NCBI RefSeq assembly: GCF_004010195.1
Contig: NC_057719.1
Span: forward strand, 42,431,820 to 42,495,819
Direction: 5' to 3'
DNA: 64,000 bases
Source of the DNA: Chiloscyllium plagiosum
Taxonomy: Eukaryota
A program made the position numbers and the translations under genes. The notes below the pieces were generated by a model. It had not been told where the DNA came from, did no database searches, and worked only from the letters and a program-made list of their open reading frames with translations. This document shows, in pieces, positions 8,383-63,189 of this stretch. Numbering within the stretch: the first letter of the stretch is position 1; every line of letters starts with the position of its first letter.

Positions 8383-8714
8383 ATAGAATCCCTACAGTGT
8401 GGAAACAGGCTCTTCAGCACAACAAGTCCACACTGACCCTCTGAACAGTATCCCACCCAGACCCATTCCCCTATATTTACCTCTGACTAATGCACCTAAA
8501 CAACACATCCCTAAATACAACGAGCAATTTAGCATGGCCAATTCACCTAACCTGCACATCTTTCGATTGTGGGAGGAAACAGAGCACCCGGAGGAAACCA
8601 AAGCGACATGTGGAGCATGTGCAAACCCCACACAGACAGTCGCCCGAGGCAGGAATCGAACCCGAGTCCCTGGCACTGTAAGGTAGCTGTGCTAACCACT
8701 GAGCCACCATGCCG
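8383..8714 (-). mobile_element. HE1-type V-SINE
   Basis: Minus-strand tRNA head GGCATGGTGGCTCAGTGG...GGTTCGATTCC, V-domain, tail GGGATTCTA. Confidence 0.9.
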
Positions 8715-8821
8715 TGCAGACAAGACTTATGTCATTCCTTTATTCAAAATGGGAGGGACGCAGAAACCAAGGTCAGTTTTATATTGGTTATAGGGAAATT
8801 GTTAGAAGTTTCTTCCTGACA

Positions 8822-9556
8822 TAAGTGGCTCAGTGGTTAGCGCTGCTGTCTCACAGTGGCAGGGACCTTGGTTCATTTCCAACCTCAGGCAAGTGTCTAC
8901 GTGGAATGTGCACATTCTCCCTATGTCTGCATGGGTTTTCTCCCACAGTCCAAAGATGTGCAGGTTAGGTAGATTTGCCACACTAAACTGCCAATAGTGT
9001 CTCGGAATGTGCAAGCTTGGTGGACTGGTCATGAGAAATACACAGTTTCAGGTATTTGGTGGGTGGGTCAGGGTGGGATGCTCTTCGGAGGGTCAGTGTG
9101 GACTCAATGGCCCGTTTCCACACTTGCCTGGTCTGGAGAAAATGTCTTATGAGGAAAGGCTGAGAGACTTGGCTCTGTTCTCATTGGAGAGAAAAAGGCT
9201 CAGAGGGGATTTAATAGAGACATACAAGATGATCAGAGGATTAGAAAGAGTGGACAGTGAGAGTCCTTTTCCTAGGATGATGACATCAACTTGTATATAA
9301 GGATGTAGCTACAAATTGAGGGGTGATAGGTTTAAGACAAATGTCAGCGGCAAGTTCTTTGCCCTGCCTGATAATGTAGTTAACTCAGCCACATTAGAGG
9401 CTTTTAAACAATCCTTGCTTAAGCGCATGGATGATAATGGAATTGTGTAGGGGGATGGGCTTAGATTAGTTCATAGGTCGGCGCAACATCAAAGGGCCAA
9501 AGGGCTTGTTCTGCGCTGTATTGTTCTATGTTCAATGTTCTATAGGGATTCTATGA
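8822..9556 (+). mobile_element. HE1-type V-SINE with a CR1 3' fragment (~9125-9541) inserted in its tail
   Basis: GTGGCTCAGTGGTTAG head; the SINE tail GTTTCCACAC...TAGGGATTCTATGA is split by a CR1 segment encoding PGLEKMSYEERLRDL..LRGDLIETYK. Confidence 0.85.
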
Positions 9557-14780: not shown

Positions 14781-16609
14781 AGTCAAAAATTTTAAAAAGA
14801 AGGTCCAGGAGGAATTCAGCAGATCTGGCAAAATCTGTGAAGAGAGAAACAGAATGAATGTTCCAAGTCCAATAATGATTCTTCAGAATTCAAGTGGAAG
14901 GTTTTCCCTTATTGGAAGTGACTTGAGTTTGACTGGGGCTATTTGATGCCATGTTCAGTGAACTGCATCAGTGAACCTTATATGTCATGAGCAGTTGGTC
15001 CCATCTCACTGTTACATCATCCATTATTATTGCTCCCAACTTATGGAATGGACATTATTAAAAAAAATGTTCTCCCTCTTAACATTACTAATCTAATCTT
15101 AACATTTGAATGAGTTCTACTGCATAAGAAGTCCTAGTTGCTGTTTCTATTCAATTATCCAAGGCAGGTTCATTTAGATTTTTTTTAACCAGTTCCACTA
15201 ATCTAACATCTCATTCATTGCATCGAGAGCTCAAAGGCAGTAATTCACTCATCCCTCAGCCAGAAAATTATGCAAACCAAGAACACTTCAAAGAAATAAG
15301 AGTATAGTCACTCAAACGGTCACAACCAAACTTTGCCCTCTTGCTCTTCACTTTGTTATCTTCTGTATCTCAAAACATCCAGCAGAGCCACCAGCTTAGC
15401 TTTAGGTTGCAAGTCATTCCTTTCTCCATGTTAGTACTTTCTGAAGTCATCAATATTAAAACTCAAAACTCAGACAACTGTCCTCTTTGTTCCCGGCAAC
15501 AAAAAATATTCTATTAATAAATGAAAATACTATGCATGTTGGAAAGTTAAAATAGAAACAAAGTGCTGGAGAATTTCAGCAGATCTGGTGGCATGCGTGT
15601 GGAAAGAAATATTTGACATTTTGAGTTCAATATGATTTTTCTTCAGAACTGCTGTTATTTGACTGAGCAGGGCAATCAGTCCTAATTTGACACAGATGAA
15701 CCTAACTAGGATTGCTGGATAGTGCTCCCCAGTGGCTGTCTCCCTAATAAAAAGCAACTGAGACCAATTGCACCAGCCTTCCACCAGCTGATAAACCTGG
15801 ATCAAACCTAAGACCTGCTACAGGTCTATATATCCTGTTATTCAGTGCAGGGAAGCAACAGATTGGAATAATTGTTTTCAAGTGGAAGGAGCCTCTCAAA
15901 AGATTCCTGATTCATGGAGGTACCATCAATAAAAGTGACTTCAATTAATCACAGGCTGCTGTTAAGTAACTCAGCTGTAAAAATAAAAGGAACTCTGATG
16001 GCATCTGCAGAATGCCCAACCACATCCCCATTTGTGAATATTACGTTGAAACAATGAGAAAAACCAAAGTCTGTTAAAATGGGTAGCACTAGAATATCAC
16101 AAGTACAACGCATGACAGCTGTTTAACACAATTTACAAGAGGAACCAAGGCAGTGATAAACACTGAAGCCTTTGATAACCAGAAGCTCACATTTCCAAGA
16201 TACTCCCATTCCCAGAACCAAATTCCATCATGCAGCTAAAAACAACTATACAACAACTGTGTAAACAGAAGCAACTATTTTGCATTCCATTACCCATGTT
16301 AAAAGATGACATTAAAGCAAAAGAAGCATCCACTTTTTCAACAGAAGTGCATAATTTCAAGGTTAGCAAACAGAAAGTGTGAAGTTTTAAATTTGCACTT
16401 CAGTACAATCATCCAGACCTAACAAATTGCTCTTATTTAAAGTTTCTTAGTTTTCAATATCTCGAGGTCCTTCTTAATGGAATTCTTCTGCCCACCTTCA
16501 GCTTTTATTAATGACAGCATAATTTTCAATAGTACCACTGTTCAATGCAACATGGACTTAGAAAGGAGTTTGCAAGAGTACACTCTTGAATGTTTAGATT
16601 CATTGTTGA

Positions 16610-25027: not shown

Positions 25028-25681
25028 CTGCAACACAGCAAACAAAAACCAGCAAGTGTCCATCAGAAAACAAACATAGCCCCAATACATTCAAAATTTT
25101 ACAGACAGAATACAATTGCTACAGAAAGATTTATTTTACACAGTATTAATAACTACACAGAAGGCATTACTAGCCTACTTCTCCTCTCAATTTGTAGGTT
25201 TGTATGGGCATTTTAAAAGGCTATGCACCGGAATTTCCAAATCACATTGGACAGTCACTGTATTTAAATTTGTGCCTTGTAAAAAATATCCTGATGATCA
25301 ATGGATAATCTTACACTTACATTAAAATCCATCTGCTAGTCATTCCCATTCACCTAATCTATCAATATCCTGTTATAATTTTATACTGTAGTCAACAGAG
25401 TCTTCAATGCTGCCCAATTTTGTGTCATCGGCAAATTTGGATATTTGGCATTTGATGCCATTATCCAAGTCATAAACAGATATTGTGGATAATTGAGGCT
25501 CCAATACAGATCCCTATAGGGCATTAGTGACACTAGTCACTTGACAGCCACAAGAAGAGGGTGTTGGTTGATTGGTTGGGCCATTATTGGTGATCTGCTG
25601 CAACTCCATGCCACTGATGGCTCAGTCAATCAGCACCCTCTGCTCACACTGCACAAAATGCCAGCCCTTTGTTCAACTAGG

Positions 25682-25820
25682 AGAAAGTGGGATCTGCAGA
25701 TGCTGGAGAGCAGAGTCGAGAGTTTGTTGCTGGAAAAGCACAGCAGGTCAGGCAGCATCCAAGGAGCAGGAGAATCAATGTTTCGGGCCAGCGCCCTTCA
25801 TCAGGCTCTGATGAAGGCCC
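25682..25820 (-). mobile_element. Penelope-like terminal repeat fragment with a decayed hammerhead core
   Basis: Homologous to 32395-32520; minus strand CTGATGAAGGGC..GCCCGAAACATT; followed by a short inverted CTGATGAAGG. Confidence 0.7.
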
Positions 25821-28025: not shown

Positions 28026-31000
28026 GAACACAGAACAACACAGAGCAGAACAGGCCCTTCGGCCCTCGATGTTGCGCCGACCTGTGAACTATTCTCAGCT
28101 TGTTCCCCCTACACTATCCCATCATCATCCATGTGCTTATGTAAGGATTGTTTAAATCTCCCTAATGTGGCTGAGTTGACTACATTAGCAGGTATTGCAT
28201 TCCACACCCTTACCACTCTCTGCATAATGAACCTGCCCCTGACATCTGTCTTAAATATATCACTCCTCAATTTGTAGTTATGCCCCCTCGTACAAGCTGA
28301 AGTAATCATCCTAGGAAAAAGACTTTCACTGTCTACCCTATCTAATCCTCTGATCATCTTATGTGTCTCTATCAAATCCCCTCTTAGCCTTCTTCTTGCC
28401 AATGAGGACAGGTTCAAGTCATAGAATCATAGAGATGTACAGCATGGAAATAGACCCTTCAGTCCAACCTGTCCATGCCGATCAGATATCCCAACCCAAT
28501 CTAGTACCACCTGCCAGCACACAGCCCACAACCTTCCAAACCCTTCCTATTCATACACCCATCCAAATGCCTCTTAAATGTTGTAATTGTACCAGCCTCC
28601 ACTACTTCCTCCAGCAGCTCGTACCACCCTCTGTGTGAAAGAGTTGCCCCTTAGGTCTCTTTTATATCTTTCCCCTCTCACCCTAAACCTATGCCCTCTA
28701 GTTCTGGACTCCCCCGCCCCATGGAAAAGACTTTGCCTATTTACCTTATCCATGCCCCTCAATTTTGTAAACCTCTAGAAGGTCATCCCTCAGCCTCCGA
28801 CACTCCAGGGAAAACAGCCCCAGCCTGTTCAGCCTCTCCATCTAGCTCAATTCCTCCAACCGTGGCAACATCCTTGTAAATCTTTTCGGAACCCTTTCAA
28901 CTTTCACATCTTTCCGATAGGAAGGAGACCAGAATTGCACACAATATTCCAACAGTGGCCTAACCAGTATCCTGTACAGCCGCAACATGACATCCCAAGA
29001 GCCTTTCCTCATAAGACCTTCCCTCCAGACCAGGCAACATCCTGGTAAATCTCCTCTGCACCTTTTCCAATGCGTCCACATCCTTCTCGAAATATGGGGA
29101 CCAGAACTGTACGCAATATTCTAAGTGTGGCCACACTAGCGTTTTGTATAGTTGCAGCATGATATTGCAGCTCCGAAACTCAATCCCTCTACGAATGAAA
29201 CCTAACACACCGTATGCCTTCTTAACAGCACTGTCAACCTGGGTGGCAACTTTTAGGGATCTATGTACATGGACTCCAAGATCCTTCTGCACATTCACAT
29301 GACCAAGAATCTTTCCATTGACCCAGTACTCTGCCTTCCTGTTATTCTTCCCAAAGTACATCACCTCACATTTAACTGCATTGAACTCCATTTGCCACCT
29401 CACAGCCCAATTCTGCAGTTTATCCAAGTCCCCCTGCAACCTGTAACATTCTTCCAAACTGTCCACTACTCCACCGACTTTAGTGTCGTCTGCAAATTTA
29501 CTAATCCATCCACCTATGCCTGCGTCTAAGTCAGTTATAAAAATGACAAACAGCACTGGTCCCAAAACAGGTCCTTGTGGCATACCACTAGTAACCGGAC
29601 TCCAGACTGAATATTTTCCATCAACCACCACTCGCTGCCTTCTTTCAGAAAGCCAGTTTCTAATCGAAACTGCTAAATCACCCACAATTCCATGCCCCTG
29701 CATTTTCTCCATCAGCCTATCATGTGGAACCTTCTCAAAGGCTTTACTGAAGTCCATGTATACCANNNNNNNNNNNNNNNNNNNNNNNNNNNNNNNNNNN
29801 NNNNNNNNNNNNNNNNNNNNNNNNNNNNNNNNNNNNNNNNNNNNNNNNNTCAAAAAACTCAATGAGGTTTGTGAGACATGACCTGCCCTTGACGAAACCA
29901 TGTTGACGATCTGCAATCAATTTGTTGTTTACTAGATGATTATAAACCTTATCTCGTATAATCCTTTCCAAAACTTTTTCTACAAAAGAAGTAAGGCTCA
30001 CTGGGTCATTTCTACTGCCTTCTTGAACAAGGGCACAACATTTGCAATCCTCCAGTCCTCTGGTACCAAACCTGTAGACAATGATGACTCAAATATCAAA
30101 GCCAAAGGGTCTGCTGTCTCTTCCCTAGCTTCCCAGAGAATCTTTGGATAAATCCCATCTGGCCCAGGGGACTTATCTACTTTCACTCCTTCTAGAATTG
30201 ATAACACCTGTTTGTAACTAACCTCGATCCTTTCTCGTACCTCATTCTTCTTCTCTACAATATTCTCCTTCTCCTGAGTGAAAACCAATGAAAAATGTTC
30301 GTTTAGCACCTCTCCGATCTCCACAGGGTCCACATTCAACTTCCCACTTCTGTCTTTGATTGGCCCTATTCCTATCCTAATCATCCTTTTATTCCTCACA
30401 TACCTATAGAAAGCTTTAGAGTTCTCCTTTATTCTATTTGCTAAAGACTGCTTGTGTCCTCTCTTTGCTCTTCTTAACTGTCTCTTTAACTCTCCTTCCT
30501 GGCTGATCTGTAACTCTCCATCGCCTCATCTGAACCATCTTGCCTCATCAACACATAAGCCTCCTTCTTCTTCATAACAAGAGATGCAAATTCTGTAGTA
30601 AACCATGGTTCCCTTACCTTATCACTTCGTCCCTGCCTGACAGGGACATACCTATCAAGGACACGCAATATCTGTTCCTTAAACCAGCTCCACATTTCCA
30701 TTGTCTGCATCCCCTGCATTTTGCTGCCCCATTCTATGCCTAATTCTTGCCTAATCGCATTATAATTGCCCTTGCCCCATCGATAACCCATGACCTGTGG
30801 CATGTACCTATCCCTTTCCATTGCTAAACTAAACGTAATTGAATTATGGTCACTCTTTCCAAAGTGCTCACCTACAACTAAATCAAACACCTGGCCTGGT
30901 ACATTACCAAGCACAGATCCAGTGTGGCCTCCCCTCTTGACCGCCCTTCGACATACTGTGTTAGGAAACCCTCCTGTACACATTGGACAAAAACTGATCC

Positions 31001-32130
31001 ATCCGACGTACTAGAGTTAGAGCATTTACAATCAATGTTGGGGAAGTTAAAGTCCCCCATAATGACTATTCTGTTCCTTTCACTCCTACCCAAAATAATT
31101 TTGCTAATTCTCTCTTCCACCTCCCTGGAACTCTGCAGAGGCCTATAAAAAACTGCAAGCAGTGTGACCTCTCCTCTTTTGTTTCTAACCTCAGCCCACA
31201 CTACCTCAGTAGACGAGTCCTCATCTAAAGTTCTCTCAGCCACACCTCCTCCTCTTTTACCGCCTTGTCTGTTCTTAATGAAAGATCTAAACCCTGGAAC
31301 CTGAAACATCCATTCCTCACCCTGCTCTATCCATGTCTCCGAAATGGCCACAACATCGAAGTCCCAGGTACCTATCCAAACTGCAAGCTCACCTACCTTA
31401 TTTCAGATACTTCTGGCATTGAAGTAGACACACTTCAAACCAGTTTGCTGTCTGCCAGCATGTACCTGTGACCCTGAAATCCTGTCCCTGTCCTTCCTAC
31501 TCTCATTCTCCTGTGCACTGCAACAATACCTCAGATTCCCACCCCCCTGCTGAGCTAGTTTAAACCCACCTGAATTGCACCAGCAAATTTCCCACCCAGG
31601 ATATTAGTATCCCTCCGGTTCAAGTGAAGACCATCCTGTTTGTACAGGTCCCACCTTCCCCAGAATGAGCCCCAATTATCCAAGAACCTGAAACCCTCCC
31701 TCCTGCACCATCCTTGCAGCCATGTGTTCAGCTGATATCTCTCCCTATTCCTTGCCTCGCTATCACATGACACAGGCAACAAACCAGATATAACAACTCT
31801 GTTTGTTCTAGCTCTCAGCTTCCACTCTAGCTCCCTACAATCCTGCCTTACATCCCTATCCATCTTTCTACCTATGTCGTTGGTACCTACATGGACAACG
31901 ACTTGAGGCTGGTCACCCTCTCCCTTCACGACCCCAAAGATACGATTAGAGACATCACCGACCCTGGCACCTGGGAGGCAACATATCAACCGTGAGTCTC
32001 GTTCGTTCCCTACAAATCTTCTATCTGAACCTTTAACTATTGAGTCCCCAATGACTAACACTCTCCTCCTTTCCCTCCTTCCCTTCTGTGCAACAGGGAC
32101 GAGCTCTGTGCCAGAGACCTGGGCCCCACT
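28026..32130 (-). mobile_element. Near full-length CR1 LINE: ORF1 SGNH-esterase domain (31555-32061) plus ORF2 APE-RT; another CR1 3' end nested at ~28415-28998
   Basis: ORF1 VIGDSIV..PGARV..VHVGTND..DGLHLN; ORF2 AISETW, MGDFNFP, SDHN, KSPGPDG, PQGPVLGP, KFADDTK; frameshifted. Confidence 0.95.
29766..29849. other. Assembly gap (84 N)
   Basis: Run of n. Confidence 1.
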
Positions 32131-32394
32131 GCATATTTGTCCTATGATTTGAATCCTGTGTTGTACCTTGACTAGATTATCACCTCACTTTTAGGTATAT
32201 TTTATGCAGCTCCTTGCATGTTCTTTTGCACTTCCCATTGGACCAAGGTTGATCCTCTGCTTTGATAATAACGTAGATTGAGAGATATATCAGGCCATGA
32301 AATTACAGCTTGAGTAAATATAATTTTACTCTTGCTCATGGCCCATAGCCCCTCAGTGATGCCCAGTTGTGATGCTTGTATTAAATCCATACGA

Positions 32395-32621
32395 GAGAAA
32401 GTGAGGGCTGCAGATGCTGGAGATCAGAGCTGAAAATGTGTTGCTGGAAAAGCGCAGCAGGTCAGGCAGCATCCAAGGAACAGAAGAATCGACGTTTCGG
32501 GCATAAGCCCTTCTTCAGGAAGAAGGGCTTATTCCTGAAGGGCTTATGCCCGAAACGTTGATTCTCCTGTTCCTTGGATGCTGCCTGACCTGCTGCGCTT
32601 TTCCAGCAACACATTTTCAGC
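32395..32621. mobile_element. Palindromic Penelope-like terminal insertion with 14-bp TSD
   Basis: TTAAATCCATACGA at 32381-32394 and 32622-32635; inverted arms 32428-32513 and 32537-32622. Confidence 0.85.
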
Positions 32622-33625
32622 TTAAATCCATACGAATTTTGTACAGTGGCAGTGCCACACAACATGGAGCGTGCAGAAAGGATCCCATCCCCAAAAGGAC
32701 TTTTCAATCGTCATTTCTATCAATAATGTCATCAACAAATGCATCTGCAACAGATGAATTTGGTGAAAAAAAAAAGTTGAATGCAAGTAGGTTTATTCAC
32801 CCACCTGCCACAGACCTAGTCAGATAAACACATCCACGAGGACTCAGCCAGCTCTGCCAGTGCTGGTGATACTGAAACTCACTCAGTGGATGGATGTTAA
32901 GTTGTGTTAGTGAGAAATGAGAAGAATGGTTTTGGAGGAAAGTATACAATCAGTTACAGAAGTTTTAGTGATTCTGCCTGTCAAGCATCAAAGAGATTGA
33001 AGAAAATCAATAAAAGAAGTTGCGCAATGGTGATGCAAGTGTGAAACCTGAGATTTAAAGCCTTAGCGCATCTACCCCACTGGTATTTTGAAGAAAAGGA
33101 AGGGAACACTCTTCCCATTATGGTAACTAACACTTCCCAAGGTCATCATTCCATCTGATATTGCTGCACGTGGGGCCTTGCTGCATGCAAATTGGCAACA
33201 ACAGGAAGTGCACTTCCAAAATGTACACTGATCAGCTCTATTGCATACTGAAGCAGTCTAAGGGCGTGAAAGGTGCTGTATAAATCCAAAGCTATCTTAA
33301 AGTTACAAAATCTCAAACAAAATATTAACCTTTATTCCTCTCACCTCACACATTCACAAAAGAAGCAGAAGCTTACAAATTAACTCGTGAGAAACTAGAT
33401 GGGTGTTTAATTTATTTAAGTGTATTTCTTGGTCTATTTTAATTCACTTGTTACAATTATGGTATTATATCTTAGTAATGCTTTCAGTAATTATCAGCAG
33501 TTAGCAACAACAGTAATTTCTAATCTATGGGGTACTATTCCGATATAATCAAAAATGTCATTCCGCTAAATAATGAAAGTTATAATATATTTGGTGTTTG
33601 CGTATATGCAATTAAGACATCCTAC

Positions 33626-36616: not shown

Positions 36617-37340
36617 TTAAAGACAACTAATGCTGGAGATCAATTGGGTCAGACAGTATCCACGGGGAGAGAACAAGCTAACATTGAGTCTAGATGACAC
36701 TTCACCAGAACTGACATAAAGTGTGGAGGGGACAGCATTCATGCTATGATTTGGAGAGTGGGGGTTGTGTTGAAGGGTGTTGACACTGGGTGCACAGATG
36801 CCAGTGAAGAAAAGATGTTGACAGTTCAGCTTAAGTGAATCACAGTTCTTGTGAATCACAGCGCAAACTGGAGGAACAGCATCTCATTTTCAGACTAGGC
36901 ACTTTGCAACCTTCTGCACTTAATATTCTGTTCAACACCTTCAAACTGGGAACATTTCCTCCCTTTCTTTTAGCTTGTTATCATGTCCTCCCCTCCCCGC
37001 ATCCCACTTACTATCCTTTCAAGTCTGGCAGGAGATACGCTATTGTTCTGCCATTCTCACAGGCTTGAGCTGAAATATCAATATATTTTCATCACCAGCA
37101 CCCTACACCCACTGTCCCCAGTACCATCCCAAACCAGATTATAGCATAAATACTGTCCCCTCCACACTTCAACTCTGATGAAGAGTCATCTAAACTCGAA
37201 ACTTTAGTTTGCTCTCTTTAGAGTTTTAGATCTAAGGAAAATGCACCTGCATTTGGTCTTCAGTCACGCTATAATGAGAAGCTATCTGACTTGCTGTGAT
37301 CTCCAGCATTTGTTGCCTTCAGTACAGATTCCAGCATCTG
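36617..37340 (+). mobile_element. Penelope-like element 3' fragment (GIY-YIG C-terminus and terminal repeat) with an inverted 5' copy of the terminus
   Basis: RKLEEQHLIFRLGTLQP at 36862-36912; CTGATGA-A-GAGT..ACTC-GAAAC at 37175-37202; 36617-36750 is an inverted copy of the 37130-37340 region. Confidence 0.75.
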
Positions 37341-42086: not shown

Positions 42087-42294
42087 CTAACGGAAAGATA
42101 AAATTAGCTTACACTTCCAAATATCAGACTTTCACTTGATCTCTACTTCCAGGCATAATTATAAATACAACTCTGATAACACAACACTCACTTCCCATCT
42201 CCAACTTCATATTTCATCTTTTGGAAAGGCAGGATGTTCAATGAAAAAGCCCACTTAGCTAAGGGATTTGTGGGGTAGGCAAAATGGAGAAATA

Positions 42295-42388
42295 GGCCTG
42301 AAGAAGGGCTTATGCCCGAAACGTCGATTCTCCTGTTCCCTGGATGGTGCCTGACCTGCTGCGCTTTTCCAGCAACACATTTTCAGCC
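42295..42388 (+). mobile_element. 94-bp Penelope-derived mini-insertion with intact minimal hammerhead core, 15-bp TSD
   Basis: CAAAATGGAGAAATA at 42280-42294 and 42389-42403; CTGAAGA-A-GGGC TTAT GCCC-GAAAC-GTC at 42298-42325. Confidence 0.85.
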
Positions 42389-42677
42389 CAAAATGGAGAA
42401 ATATAACATTGATCACTGGGTGAGTCAATCAAAGATGGTGCACCTTTCACCAATCAACTTAACAGAAGTATTGGTTGACACAGCAGTTATGGCATGTGGA
42501 ACACAAAGTAGTCTTTGACATGGAAGGGAATGTAAAAATGAAAAAAAGAGTTTAAGAATAGGCGTCTAATAATCTGACAGTAGAACATATTTTCAGTTCC
42601 AGTAATCTTACTAGATTTACAATTTTAATACAGACATAAAATACACGGAGATGATATGGGATGAAAAATAACAGTGT

Positions 42678-42997: not shown

Positions 42998-43889
42998 AAC
43001 TGGAATAGACGTTGGAGGTAATACAAAATATCAGAATGGGAGGCATTTAACTATGTGATGGATAGGGCTCAGCCTAAAACTCTAACTAAGAGCAAAGGAC
43101 TTCCAAAAGCTCAAACCAAAACCTAAAAGTTAAAGAGTGCAATACAATTTATTTGGGTGGTATAACAGAAGGAAAGCAGAAGTGGAAAAGCACAAATATA
43201 GAATAGAAACATAAATAGAGAAAATAGGCTATTCATCCCATCCAGCCCACTTTTTCATTCAACAGGATTATGGCTGATCTCTTGCTTCAATGTCACATTC
43301 TCATTCTCTTCCCATATACCTTGACATCTTTGGTCTCGAGAAACCTTTTTTGTCTTGAACATATTCAGTGATTTGGCCTTCACATCCTTCTCTGCTAGAG
43401 AATTCTACAGGTGCACCGCCCTCTCACAATTAAGAAATTTGAATCCTAAATGGCATACCATACATCTTAAGACCATGATCTCTAGTTCTGAACTACCCTG
43501 CTAGAGGAAGTTTCATCTCTGCATCCAGTACATCCAGCTTTGTCAGAATTTTCCACACTTTAATGAGATTGCCTCTCATTCTTATAAAGTTCAGTGAATA
43601 CACATCTTGTCGACCCAGTCTCTCTTCATGACAAATCTGCCATTCCCTATCACAGTATGGTGAAACTATACTGCGGTCCTTCTATGACTTTCTTTGGTAG
43701 GAGAACAAACTGCACAGCCTGCTAGAAGGTCCCTTTGGACTTTAACATTTCCCAAAACTATTACCATTTATTTATAAACAAAAACAGAAATTGCTAGAAA
43801 AACTCAGTAGGTCTGGTGCATCTGTGGAGAGAAATCAGAGTTGATGTTTCAGGCCCAGTGACCCTTCTTCAGAATTTCAGTTCTGAAAG

Positions 43890-46605: not shown

Positions 46606-47197
46606 AATAGAATTTTTAATAGAGTCCCAACAGAGTGGAAACAGGCCCTTTGGCCCAACAAGTCCACACCGACCCTCCGAAGAGTAACCCACCCAAACCC
46701 ATTCCGCTACCCTATTACTCTACATTTACTCCTGACTAATACACCTAACCCAAGTTAAAAATCACACAACAGCAGGTTATAGTCCAACAGGTTTAATTGG
46801 AAGCACACTAGCTTTCGGAGCGCCGCTCCTTCATGCCTGATGAACAACCACCTGATGAAGGAGCGTCGCTCCGAAAGCTAGTGTGCTTCCAATTAAACCT
46901 GTTGGACTATAACCTGCTGTTGTGTGATTTTTAACTTTGTACACCCCAGTCCAACACCGGCATCTCCGAATCATGACACCTAACCTACACATTCCCGGGC
47001 AATTTAGCATGGGCAATTCACCTAACCTGCACATCTTTGGATTGTGGGAGGAAACTGGAGCACCCAGAGGAAACTTACACAGACACAGGGAGAATGTGCA
47101 AATTCCACACAGACAGTTGCCAGAGGCTGGAATCAAACCCAGGTCCCTGGTACTGTGAGGCATCTGTGCTAACCACTGAGTCACTGTGCTGCCCCAC
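46606..47197 (-). mobile_element. HE1-type V-SINE interrupted by a palindromic PLE insertion
   Basis: SINE sequence resumes exactly after the ACACCTAACC duplication. Confidence 0.88.
46751..46975 (+). mobile_element. Palindromic Penelope-like insertion (second family) with minimal hammerhead core, 10-bp TSD
   Basis: ACACCTAACC at 46741-46750 and 46976-46985; 83-bp arms 46752-46834 and 46855-46937 with 1 mismatch; CAC-CTGATGA-A-GGAGC GTC GCTCC-GAAAG-CTA-GTG at 46849-46883. Confidence 0.85.
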
Positions 47198-49147
47198 ACA
47201 GTGTCTAGCAACTTCATAGACTCTTCGCTGGATCTAATACTATTTTGTTAGCCACAACTGTGTTACTTTCCCTGTTGTAATGCATGCATCCGTTCCTTAA
47301 ACATTTTTCATTGCTATCACCCATTATGCATTTTAGTAAACAGGAGTTTAGAGTGTCTCGAAGACATTGGCAAATTTATTGCTGAGATTAAAGAATACAC
47401 GCAAGTGATAATTAAAGAAAAGGTGAAGCTATTGAAGGATGTCAGCAGCAATCTTCAATGGAATTGAGATTCTCAATCATTTTGCTTTTATATTTAAAAG
47501 TCGAAGATGAAAGGAGGGGTCCTTGAAAGGAATGAGGAATAACTGACACACTTATTTCAAAACATTATGGCAAATGATAAATAGACAGCAAACCCAGATA
47601 GTCCAAGCTCCATGCAGCATATTAGCAATTAAAATCAGACATTCTAATCATATTTTTCATTTATTTTTATGTAGGAAAATATACATACTAAAGCACGAGA
47701 AGGTGACAAAGGTTACTTGACAAAGTTTAAATAAGAAAACCATCTGTCCTAACTACAAACTGTTAATTGCACATCAGAGGAAGAAAACTAGCGGAAACCA
47801 TTAGGGCTAACATTACTATACATTTGAAAAAGTATTATCTAATCAAGGACAGTCAACACAGATTTGTAAATGGTATGTCATGCTTGATTATTTCCATTGA
47901 ATTCTTTGAAAAATGAGAGCAAAAAACAAAGAATGCACTGAATTTGAATTTTCAAAAACTGTTTGATAAAGTGCCACATATGGGACACGATGCATAAATT
48001 AAAGTTAATGATATTCAAGGATAAAGGGATGGCTGAAGGATAAAACAACTAAACAATGACTAAATTAATGCTCTCAGACTGCCAAAATGTGCTAGAGGCG
48101 TGCCTCACGGATGTGTTGGAACCTTTCTCGTTCTCTAGATACGCAAATGACTTGCACAACAGCACAAATGATGTCAAATTTTGCTGATCTTAAAATTCGG
48201 GGAGACTGCAAGAGGATTTCGGCAGAATAGATAAATAGACAGATGTACGCTTGTCACAACTCAATATACATAGGCAGAAGCAATACATTTGCAGGGGTGA
48301 GGTAGGTGTGAGAGGCAGAATGTGAGTCTGTTTAAAATCATAAAAGTCACCAAACGGGGCAATCAGGGGTACAACCTTATTTTAATTAGGCAAAAAAATC
48401 GACACAAAGGGTAATTAAAGACACAACATTGGGGCTTGCAATGTAAAACAAGAGGCAGTATAAACTTTCAGAAATATTTCTTGGGTGTTTCTCATGGATT
48501 ATTAAGGACTCAGGGCAGGTTCTTTAAGTCCTTAAATCCATACAACACAGAAAGCGATGATTCAGTCCCTCATACATGCCAGCTCTCTGCATCTGCAAAT
48601 CACTTAGTTCCACAGGAAACCTGCCTTTCCTCCATAAACCTAAAAATCTCTTCAGACAATGTCCAATTCCTTTTTGAAAGCTTTAATTGACTCTGCTTCT
48701 ATTCAACTCTCAAGCAGTGCAATCAAGATTCTTAAACCTCAAGGCATAAAAAAGATTTCCTCACGTTACTTTAAACTTGTCTCTTCTGGTACTCAATCCT
48801 TCCACCAAAGGCAACATTCTTTTACTCCAACCTACTCTGTCTAGATGGTTCATGATTTTGAGTACCTCTACCAAATCTCCTCTCAACATTTCTCCAAAAA
48901 GAGAACTGATCTATTTAACCGAAGTTCACTATCACCTAGACCATTCTCTTGAATTCTAATCAGAATATAATGTGCCATTCTTGATGTGAAGGCATTAGAG
49001 AGGCTGCAGGTGAAGCCAAACTAATACTTACACAGATTTTACACTTTTGCACTCTATGCAACTATATATAAATCCTAGGATCCCTAAAGCTTTATTAGCT
49101 GCTTTCTCAACTTGGCTTGTCATCCTCAATGACTTGCACACAAATCC

Positions 49148-62515: not shown

Positions 62516-62609
62516 CAACTACATGTACCATCTGTGAGATGCACAGCAGAAATTCACCAAGGCTCCACCGATGTATTTTCAAAAGCCATGGCCTGTACTG
62601 TTGCAAAGG

Positions 62610-62700
62610 TCTGAAGAAGGGCTCATGCCCGAAACGTCGATTCTCCTACTCCTTGGATGCTGCCTGACCTGCTGCGCTTTTCCAGCAACACATTTTCAGC
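62610..62700 (+). mobile_element. 91-bp Penelope-derived mini-insertion with intact minimal hammerhead core, 13-bp TSD
   Basis: ACTGTTGCAAAGG at 62597-62609 and 62701-62713; CTGAAGA-A-GGGC TCAT GCCC-GAAAC-GTC at 62611-62638. Confidence 0.85.
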
Positions 62701-63189
62701 ACTGTTGCAAAGGATCAGGATAGCAGATACATGGGAACACCACCACTTGCAAGTTCCTTTTCAAGCCATACAGTACCTTGACTTGGAAATGTATCCTATT
62801 ACTGCACTGACTGGGTGAATGGCTTCCACCCATTCCTAAATTTTCCACATGCCTGGTTAAGTACATTCCACAACACACAAGATACAAGGTACCTGACACC
62901 ATCCAAGACAAAGCAGCCTGGTTGACTGACAGCCAATCCATTACCATAAGTATTCATTCCCTTTATGACTTCTACAGGAGCAGCAATTATTACAATCTAC
63001 AAAATTCACTGACAGCAACACACCAAGTCATCTTCAATAGCACTTTCGAAATCTGTGATCCAATTAGAGCGACCTACACCAGGGATTACAGCAAGTCAAG
63101 AGGGGTCTCCCCACAACCTGCTCAGGACAGCCATATTGATAACGATATCCAGAGTAGGACAGAAAGGAATAGTGTACAAACATAGAAAA

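Follow-up and report, generated by a model that had tools for sequence, protein, structure and literature searches.

Kinase and PH-domain exons were found on the minus strand of the 64,000-nucleotide window (the whole stretch of DNA analysed here) at about 3.0-3.2 kb and 58.9-59.2 kb, the PH match lying under the Pfam cut-off. Judged from sequence, the insert described below appears to sit between exons of an AKT-like gene transcribed from the minus strand; the name AKT is one that we presume from the translations. The insert interrupts a tRNA-headed SINE (46620..47200), a multi-copy repeat with its tRNA-like head on the minus strand, which we take to be the SINE named HE1. When the insert was deleted in silico, the flanks aligned as a continuous SINE to all four sibling copies tested (254-278 identities and 36-47 mismatches). 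Removal of the insert thus restores a SINE that is alignable across the site, and the insertion into a SINE proposed by the sequence-only reading was borne out. Elsewhere in the window, an inverted SINE pair at 8384-9124 gives a long imperfect hairpin. A broken LINE-type retroelement lies on the minus strand at 28960-32184, with an esterase-like ORF1, endonuclease and RT pieces, and N gaps in the assembly; its family labels are presumptive and were recognised from the translations.

The insert occupies 46751-46975 (225 bp) between two 10-bp TSD copies, ACACCTAACC, at 46741..46750 and 46976..46985. This sequence occurs just twice in the window, both strands counted, and is single at the place in sibling SINEs that matches the left copy; coordinates and TSD uniqueness agree with the 225-bp insert and 10-bp TSD claimed earlier. 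Sequence comparison showed an inverted, 5'-truncated copy of an element end (83 bp) on the minus strand at 46752..46834, which has neither the tail nor the first three bases of the core and whose hammerhead is therefore incomplete. A junction filler on the plus strand (46835..46843), private to the locus, consists of one base and a re-copy of the core stretch 46851-46858. It is followed by a direct copy of the pseudo-LTR end of a Penelope-like element (PLE) at 46844..46937 (plus strand), which begins 8 nt 5' of the hammerhead core, and by a 38-nt PLE "tail" at 46938..46975 (plus strand), present on one arm only and with no left-side partner. The 20-nt spacer is accordingly made up of one extra base, the core re-copy (46836-46844) and, from 46844 on, the genuine beginning of the direct copy.

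Each arm is 83 bp long (46752-46834 and 46855-46937), and the only mismatch, 46823 C vs. 46866 T, falls on the central base of loop II. The near-perfect 83-bp hairpin with one stem II loop difference was therefore read correctly from the letters, whereas the 38-nt tail and the short core duplicate in the spacer were missing from that reading. It had also described the core of the minus arm as broken; the core is indeed incomplete, but by no point mutation, since the arm stops inside the core at the inversion junction. A rare allele is common to the two arms (C at 46917 and, as its mirror, G at 46772), the other base making up 91-96% of the family depth, and the arms therefore derive from one source.

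The plus strand carries a minimal type I hammerhead at 46849..46883 with a predicted cut after A46880. It is composed of CAC (46849-51), CUGAUGA (46852-58), an extra A (46859), GAAA (46873-76), GC (46877-78), U (46879), A17 (46880) and GUG (46881-83), with a 3-bp stem I (CAC/GUG) and a 5-bp stem II (46860-64/46868-72). The core CUGANGA and GAAA boxes are present together with U16.1 and H17 (46852-58, 46873-76, 46879-80), the extra base A46859 falls between positions 9 and 10.1, and G46860-C46872 forms the G10.1-C11.1 pair. Stem III is loopless, with the palindrome AGCU at 46876-46879. With all core bases in place, the proposal of an intact loopless-stem-III hammerhead with AGCU and a CUA triplet on this strand stands, and so does that of a second family near 42295 with ACGU at stem III, which reads ACGU-C in the family at 42298. 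A strict motif scan of the window gave 7 matches, whereas 300 dinucleotide shuffles yielded 0.063 on average. An Rfam search (E up to 1) returned no hammerhead family among its 3 matches. A MIR845_1 microRNA precursor match (44.3 bits vs. a gathering score of 81) was driven by the long hairpin and was rejected, as were mir-680 and mir-3158 matches, which were under their cut-offs and reflect long hairpins.

To survey the family, public contigs were placed on 46700-47030 at 85% likeness, with 4 runs used of the 24 listed. SINE-flank matches included, 61,152 contigs were placed from X1, 72,708 from X9 and 10,017 from X15; 0 reads of a raw single-cell RNA run (X22) were placed on 46700-47030, and no listed contig of X1, X9 or X15 spans the whole stretch. 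Substitution and loose-end figures given here are the best-supported ones, with 43 substitution rows and 1029 loose ends beyond these. Loose 5' ends pile up at 46844 (313 contigs in X1, 331 in X9 and 69 in X15). Loose 3' ends pile up at the arm end, 46938 (473 in X1 and 484 in X9), and at the tail end, 46974 (740, 772 and 91 in X1, X9 and X15, respectively), with more at 46967 and 46973. At 46834-46843 the depth collapses to 340-1000 in X1 vs. 539,343 at 46848, a drop of about 500- to 1600-fold, and the centre of the insert is therefore private to the locus. The upstream loose ends comprise 30 letters only, at 39-49% agreement, and the parent ORF of the window's own AGCU family was not found in the window or by loose-end extension. 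A 2-nt length variant of the family lies just 3' of the cut site, at 46881-46882; the deletion accounts for 6.4% of X1 depth, in addition to 238 loose ends at 46883, and stem I stays 3 bp in both forms.

A metagenome motif search with positions 15.2, 16.2 and 17 and loop II left free gave two contigs, L001 and L002, which are 99.6% identical over 677 bp and therefore represent one element; the motif pattern had 0 matches in a genome-contig collection and 0 in a viral-contig collection. Both contigs read G, C and A at the free core positions (AGCU-A) and match the window hammerhead in 33 of 35 bases, with a stem I of 5 bp vs. 3 bp in the window. The L002 motif is located 753 bp 3' of a 177-codon ORF that has no Pfam match of its own. 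Among its close relatives (20 scanned of 150 listed), GIY-YIG matches with E up to 0.05 were detected in 10, of which 5 reached or exceeded the Pfam cut-off, and RVT_1 matches in 4. In an alignment with 20 relatives, Cys, His, Arg, Glu and Asn positions are conserved, and L002 and most of the aligned proteins have a CxxxxCxxC linker; a CX2-5CxxC linker before the endonuclease is tied to Neptune PLEs in the relevant section of Craig et al. (2021; PMC8557442). An RT fragment in inverted orientation on L001 is 63% identical to the 881-aa relative P0007 and matches RVT_1 with E 1.5e-5, short of the cut-off; an LT-IIB Pfam match of P0007 (E 0.046, below the cut-off) was taken as chance. No names came out of a cluster look-up for 10 homologous proteins, and when L002 1310-1400 was folded, stem II was the only signal (z 0.19).

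Each of the two marine metagenome contigs (L001 1-1050 and L002 1-1470) has its own head-to-head inverted junction, a layout that this Neptune-like PLE has in common with the window. tblastn of L001 and L002 pieces against the window gave no match. Beyond the hammerhead, the local alignment score of the window with L002 was reached by 89 of 2000 shuffles and the anchored score by 100 of 2000 (borderline, ~5%). With the downstream similarity borderline, it is the 35-nt motif that carries the Neptune assignment. The likeness of the window hammerhead to L001/L002 fits either long conservation or horizontal movement. No downstream similarity was seen between the AGCU and ACGU families (score reached by 1226 of 2000 shuffles).

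In our interpretation, which we hold with a probability of about 0.9, an endonuclease-bearing PLE, probably of the Neptune type, left the insert as a retrotransposed end that was dead on arrival. PLE insertions are described in part of Craig et al. (2021) as an inverted 5'-truncated copy beside a direct pseudo-LTR with a 30-40 bp tail at one end, and TSDs of 8-10 bp are given for PLEs by Arkhipova et al. (2013; PMC3846280). The locus shares with endonuclease-positive PLEs the head-to-head inverted truncated copy, the one-sided tail of this length (38 nt here), a TSD of ~10 bp and two alternative 3' ends. Unlike full PLE insertions, it holds only the last 130 bp of the element, without an ORF, and its centre has a short direct re-copy of the core in place of a plain palindrome.

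Long near-perfect inverted arms plus a TSD would also be left by a palindromic MITE or fold-back DNA transposon carrying a chance look-alike of a hammerhead. Here, however, the element extends 38 nt past the right arm, so that its limits are not set by the inverted arms; the centre of the insert is private to the locus and not a fixed internal sequence, and the motif is found in the window at ~100 times the chance level and turns up again next to RT/GIY-YIG sequence. Such an origin is hardly credible. With the MITE layout failing and L001/L002 providing the link, the association of the motif with RT/GIY-YIG elements and not with DNA transposons, which had been put forward earlier, is upheld.

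A less remote, though still unlikely, source is a small non-autonomous retrozyme- or SINE-like element that has a short RNA of its own and uses PLE proteins. The 5' ends of the family pile at a single place, 8 nt 5' of the core, and ACGU-family stubs likewise begin at the core; portions of a preprint (bioRxiv 10.64898/2026.07.22.740005) make the case that animal retrozymes originate from PLE ends and record them in one chondrichthyan. Like the locus, these non-LTR retrozymes are non-coding, of type I hammerhead and PLE-derived. As defined in those portions, however, they have same-strand tandem repeats with at least two complete hammerheads, whereas the locus has an inverted pair with one complete hammerhead and no same-strand tandem repeat. 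Tandem retrozyme units were not present in the window, where two stretches of the family only were found, inverted and one of them incomplete. In addition, the 5' edge precedes the core and does not fall at the cut site, part of the contigs run on into common upstream sequence, so that longer forms exist, and the pile at 46844 also gathers copies that simply continue upstream.

Under the preferred reading as a PLE insertion, the GIY-YIG nuclease of the element would have made a 10-nt staggered cut, and each 3' end of the target would have primed cDNA on the same source RNA. The cDNA start points would be two internal RT start sites, i.e., the arm end and the tail end; both cDNAs would run to the front edge of the hammerhead and then be joined with a short templated re-copy of the core. 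In the sections of Frangieh et al. (2024; PMC11167929) concerned with a lizard PLE, the tail spans the interval from one internal RT start site to the other, the PLE protein cuts and extends both target strands in vitro, and in vitro insertion proceeds without a need for hammerhead cleavage; the RNA-seq data in these sections have no ends at the cut site. Naiad PLEs spread without hammerheads, as stated in part of Craig et al. (2021). A fold-back copy of one cDNA would be expected to produce the same layout as twin priming, and self-priming is preferred for inverted junctions in the corresponding passage of Arkhipova et al. (2013). The rare allele shared by the arms is compatible with twin priming and self-priming alike. 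Taken as a PLE insertion, the locus is a clean teaching example, with one source, two arms and ends at known RT start points. On the published model, tandem same-strand hammerheads in the active parent would pair AGCU with AGCU to give a 4-bp shared stem III; the parent dimer would be cut after CUA, and the palindrome would be selected there.

A study by Lunse, Weinberg and Breaker (RNA Biol) reportedly deals with the minimal hammerheads in metazoan PLE pseudo-LTRs. The motif was defined by Cervera and de la Pena (2014; PMC4209133), who reasoned that it acts as a dimer; the cleavage results in the relevant part of that paper are low for dimers and trimers, with none for monomers, and the same part notes opposite-strand motif pairs and gives palindromic 15.2-16.2 positions as a feature. 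Passages of a review (PMC6765202) restate the dimer result and cite Lunse et al., who are likewise cited on minimal hammerheads in a passage of PMC6466107. A hand count of Fig. S3 of PMC4209133 gave 56 entries, of which 15 with a stem III loop were set aside; 40 of the 41 loopless entries in that figure are palindromic (ACGU 29, AGCU 5, AUAU 5 and AAUU 1).

The locus has in common with PLE minimal hammerheads the core boxes, the extra base before stem II, the G10.1-C11.1 pair, a short stem I, a loopless stem III and the palindromic 15.1-16.1 positions; solo copies and opposite-strand pairs from truncated elements also occur in the class, as they do in the window. The differences from the published set, in host and at position 17, are small: the 56 entries of that figure include no cartilaginous fish, whereas the window family comes from one, and its 5 loopless AGCU entries have C, U, C, G and U at position 17, as compared with A in the window family. 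Literature searches returned no paper on shark PLE hammerheads in particular, and the supplements of the retrozyme preprint may include the family. What is new here is a cartilaginous-fish family with the AGCU-A motif added to a published class, which matters little as it stands.

The sequence-only reading had taken the covariation of AGCU and ACGU as a sign of selection for dimer cleavage. The palindromic covariation is real, the 15.1-16.1 palindrome is compatible with the double-hammerhead model, and at the level of the class the reasoning is sound. It has been in print since 2014, however, and the genomic copies are without sign of selection; two families are also weak evidence for it, because the computed chance of a palindromic middle pair is ~0.2 for each. 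Of the 7 strict sites in the window, 4 are palindromic and the other 3 deviate from ACGU through a change of the CpG guanine. Within the C11.1-G12 CpG, mutated bases make up 11.8% of X1 depth at C11.1 and 10.8% at G12. These CpG changes in genomic copies are neutral decay of dead copies. Among the rows listed, no substitution row was seen at 46877-46879 or their mirrors across the family contigs, which is to be expected because of recent common descent and because AGCU contains no CpG. We infer that palindrome selection belongs to the active parent lineage and not to the genomic copies.

Folding of the insert plus-strand RNA gave a minimum free energy of -155.5 kcal/mol for the hairpin vs. -114.6 kcal/mol with the hammerhead forced, i.e., a cost of ~41 kcal/mol to open the hairpin, and a stem II pairing probability of ~1e-14. 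The hammerhead at the locus is predicted by this model to be a passenger, with the 83-bp hairpin of the plus RNA hiding the motif. The locus cannot form a dimer in cis, because the two copies there have opposite orientations and anneal into a hairpin. The minus strand, from which AKT and the SINE are read, has only the truncated core in sense, and the host-sense copy is incomplete because its core is cut at the inversion junction. For two isolated copies, nearest-neighbour energies in a model without tertiary contacts and Mg2+ were -18.3 for the double hammerhead, -21.2 for two monomers and -33.3 for the best alternative dimer. The unfavourable dimer energy from this model would agree with the reported low activity and with the dependence of the lizard PLE on its protein.

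If the palindrome were under selection in the genomic copies themselves, these would act by double-hammerhead cutting of host transcripts in cis or in trans. The intact plus copy, which keeps every core base and a valid triplet, is what such a role would call for, the AGCU family is represented in the probable RNA run and is very abundant (61,152 and 72,708 contigs in two runs, with SINE-flank matches counted), and the listed rows hold no substitutions at 46877-46879 or the mirrors. The last point, however, is expected from recent common descent, C11.1/G12 undergoes CpG decay, and the palindrome is lost in 3 of the 7 strict window sites. At the locus the two copies are on opposite strands and locked as a hairpin, the host gene and SINE transcribe the strand with the cut core, and in the model the double hammerhead of isolated copies is less stable than monomers or the alternative dimer. 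We consider this role very improbable.

In a depth-weighted comparison that used contigs only, from different individuals and with the run type guessed, element-sense A>G in X15 (probable RNA) was much above that in X1 (a DNA run with the same species label) and X9 at 6 of the 7 A>G sites listed. The levels in X15 vs. X1 and X9 were 6.4% vs. 0.01 and 0.03 at 46875, 9.0 vs. 0.13 and 0.13 at 46876, 7.8 vs. 1.6 and 1.0 at 46880, 4.7 vs. 1.4 and 1.4 at 46892, 8.3 vs. 0.6 and 0.5 at 46895, and 9.8 vs. 2.1 and 1.9 at 46912; no A>G excess was found in X15 at 46909. The edited-looking core sites 46875, 46876 and 46880 correspond to A14, A15.1 and A17, where substitutions would be expected to disable a hammerhead. 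ADAR editing of PLE hairpins is a fairly likely cause of the A>G excess. Heavy editing of elephant shark repeats and of lizard Penelope is reported in part of PMC5625713.

It is doubtful that editing regulates a working ribozyme. A wider scheme, in which intronic stubs would cut pre-mRNAs in trans as double hammerheads, AGCU and ACGU would serve as family codes that do not cross-pair, and ADAR, recruited by hairpin and inverted copies, would edit the three core adenosines and so switch the ribozyme off, seems quite improbable. Our literature search returned no paper joining ADAR, a hammerhead ribozyme and Penelope. If editing of core adenosines did control the cleavage of host transcripts, ADAR would be linked to ribozyme silencing, and the abundant AGCU family offers a test bed for the in vivo role of PLE hammerheads.

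The ACGU family has 6 similar stretches in the window, the copy at 42298 included; this comparison stub (42298..42387, plus strand) is flanked by a 14-bp TSD and carries an ACGU-C hammerhead. At 32394..32622, a hairpin copy of the ACGU family has 86-nt arms, a one-arm tail of ~34 nt and a TSD of ~14 bp, a layout like that of the AGCU insert, with the core re-copied at the centre. Two ACGU-family stubs of ~90 bp (42285-42402 and 62597-62713) have TSDs of 13-14 bp and start one or a few bases 5' of the core, so that most of the 5' strand of stem I is absent. On the minus strand at 25681-25818, an ACGU-family stub with a tail has a palindrome decayed to ACAU and a 10-bp inverted core copy at its 5' end. 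A third, older hammerhead family forms an inverted pair (36620-36754 and 37134-37319) ~400 bp apart, with the palindrome decayed in both members. A fourth, decayed family is found on the minus strand at 43770-43885 and 14794-14895, with ACAU at stem III.
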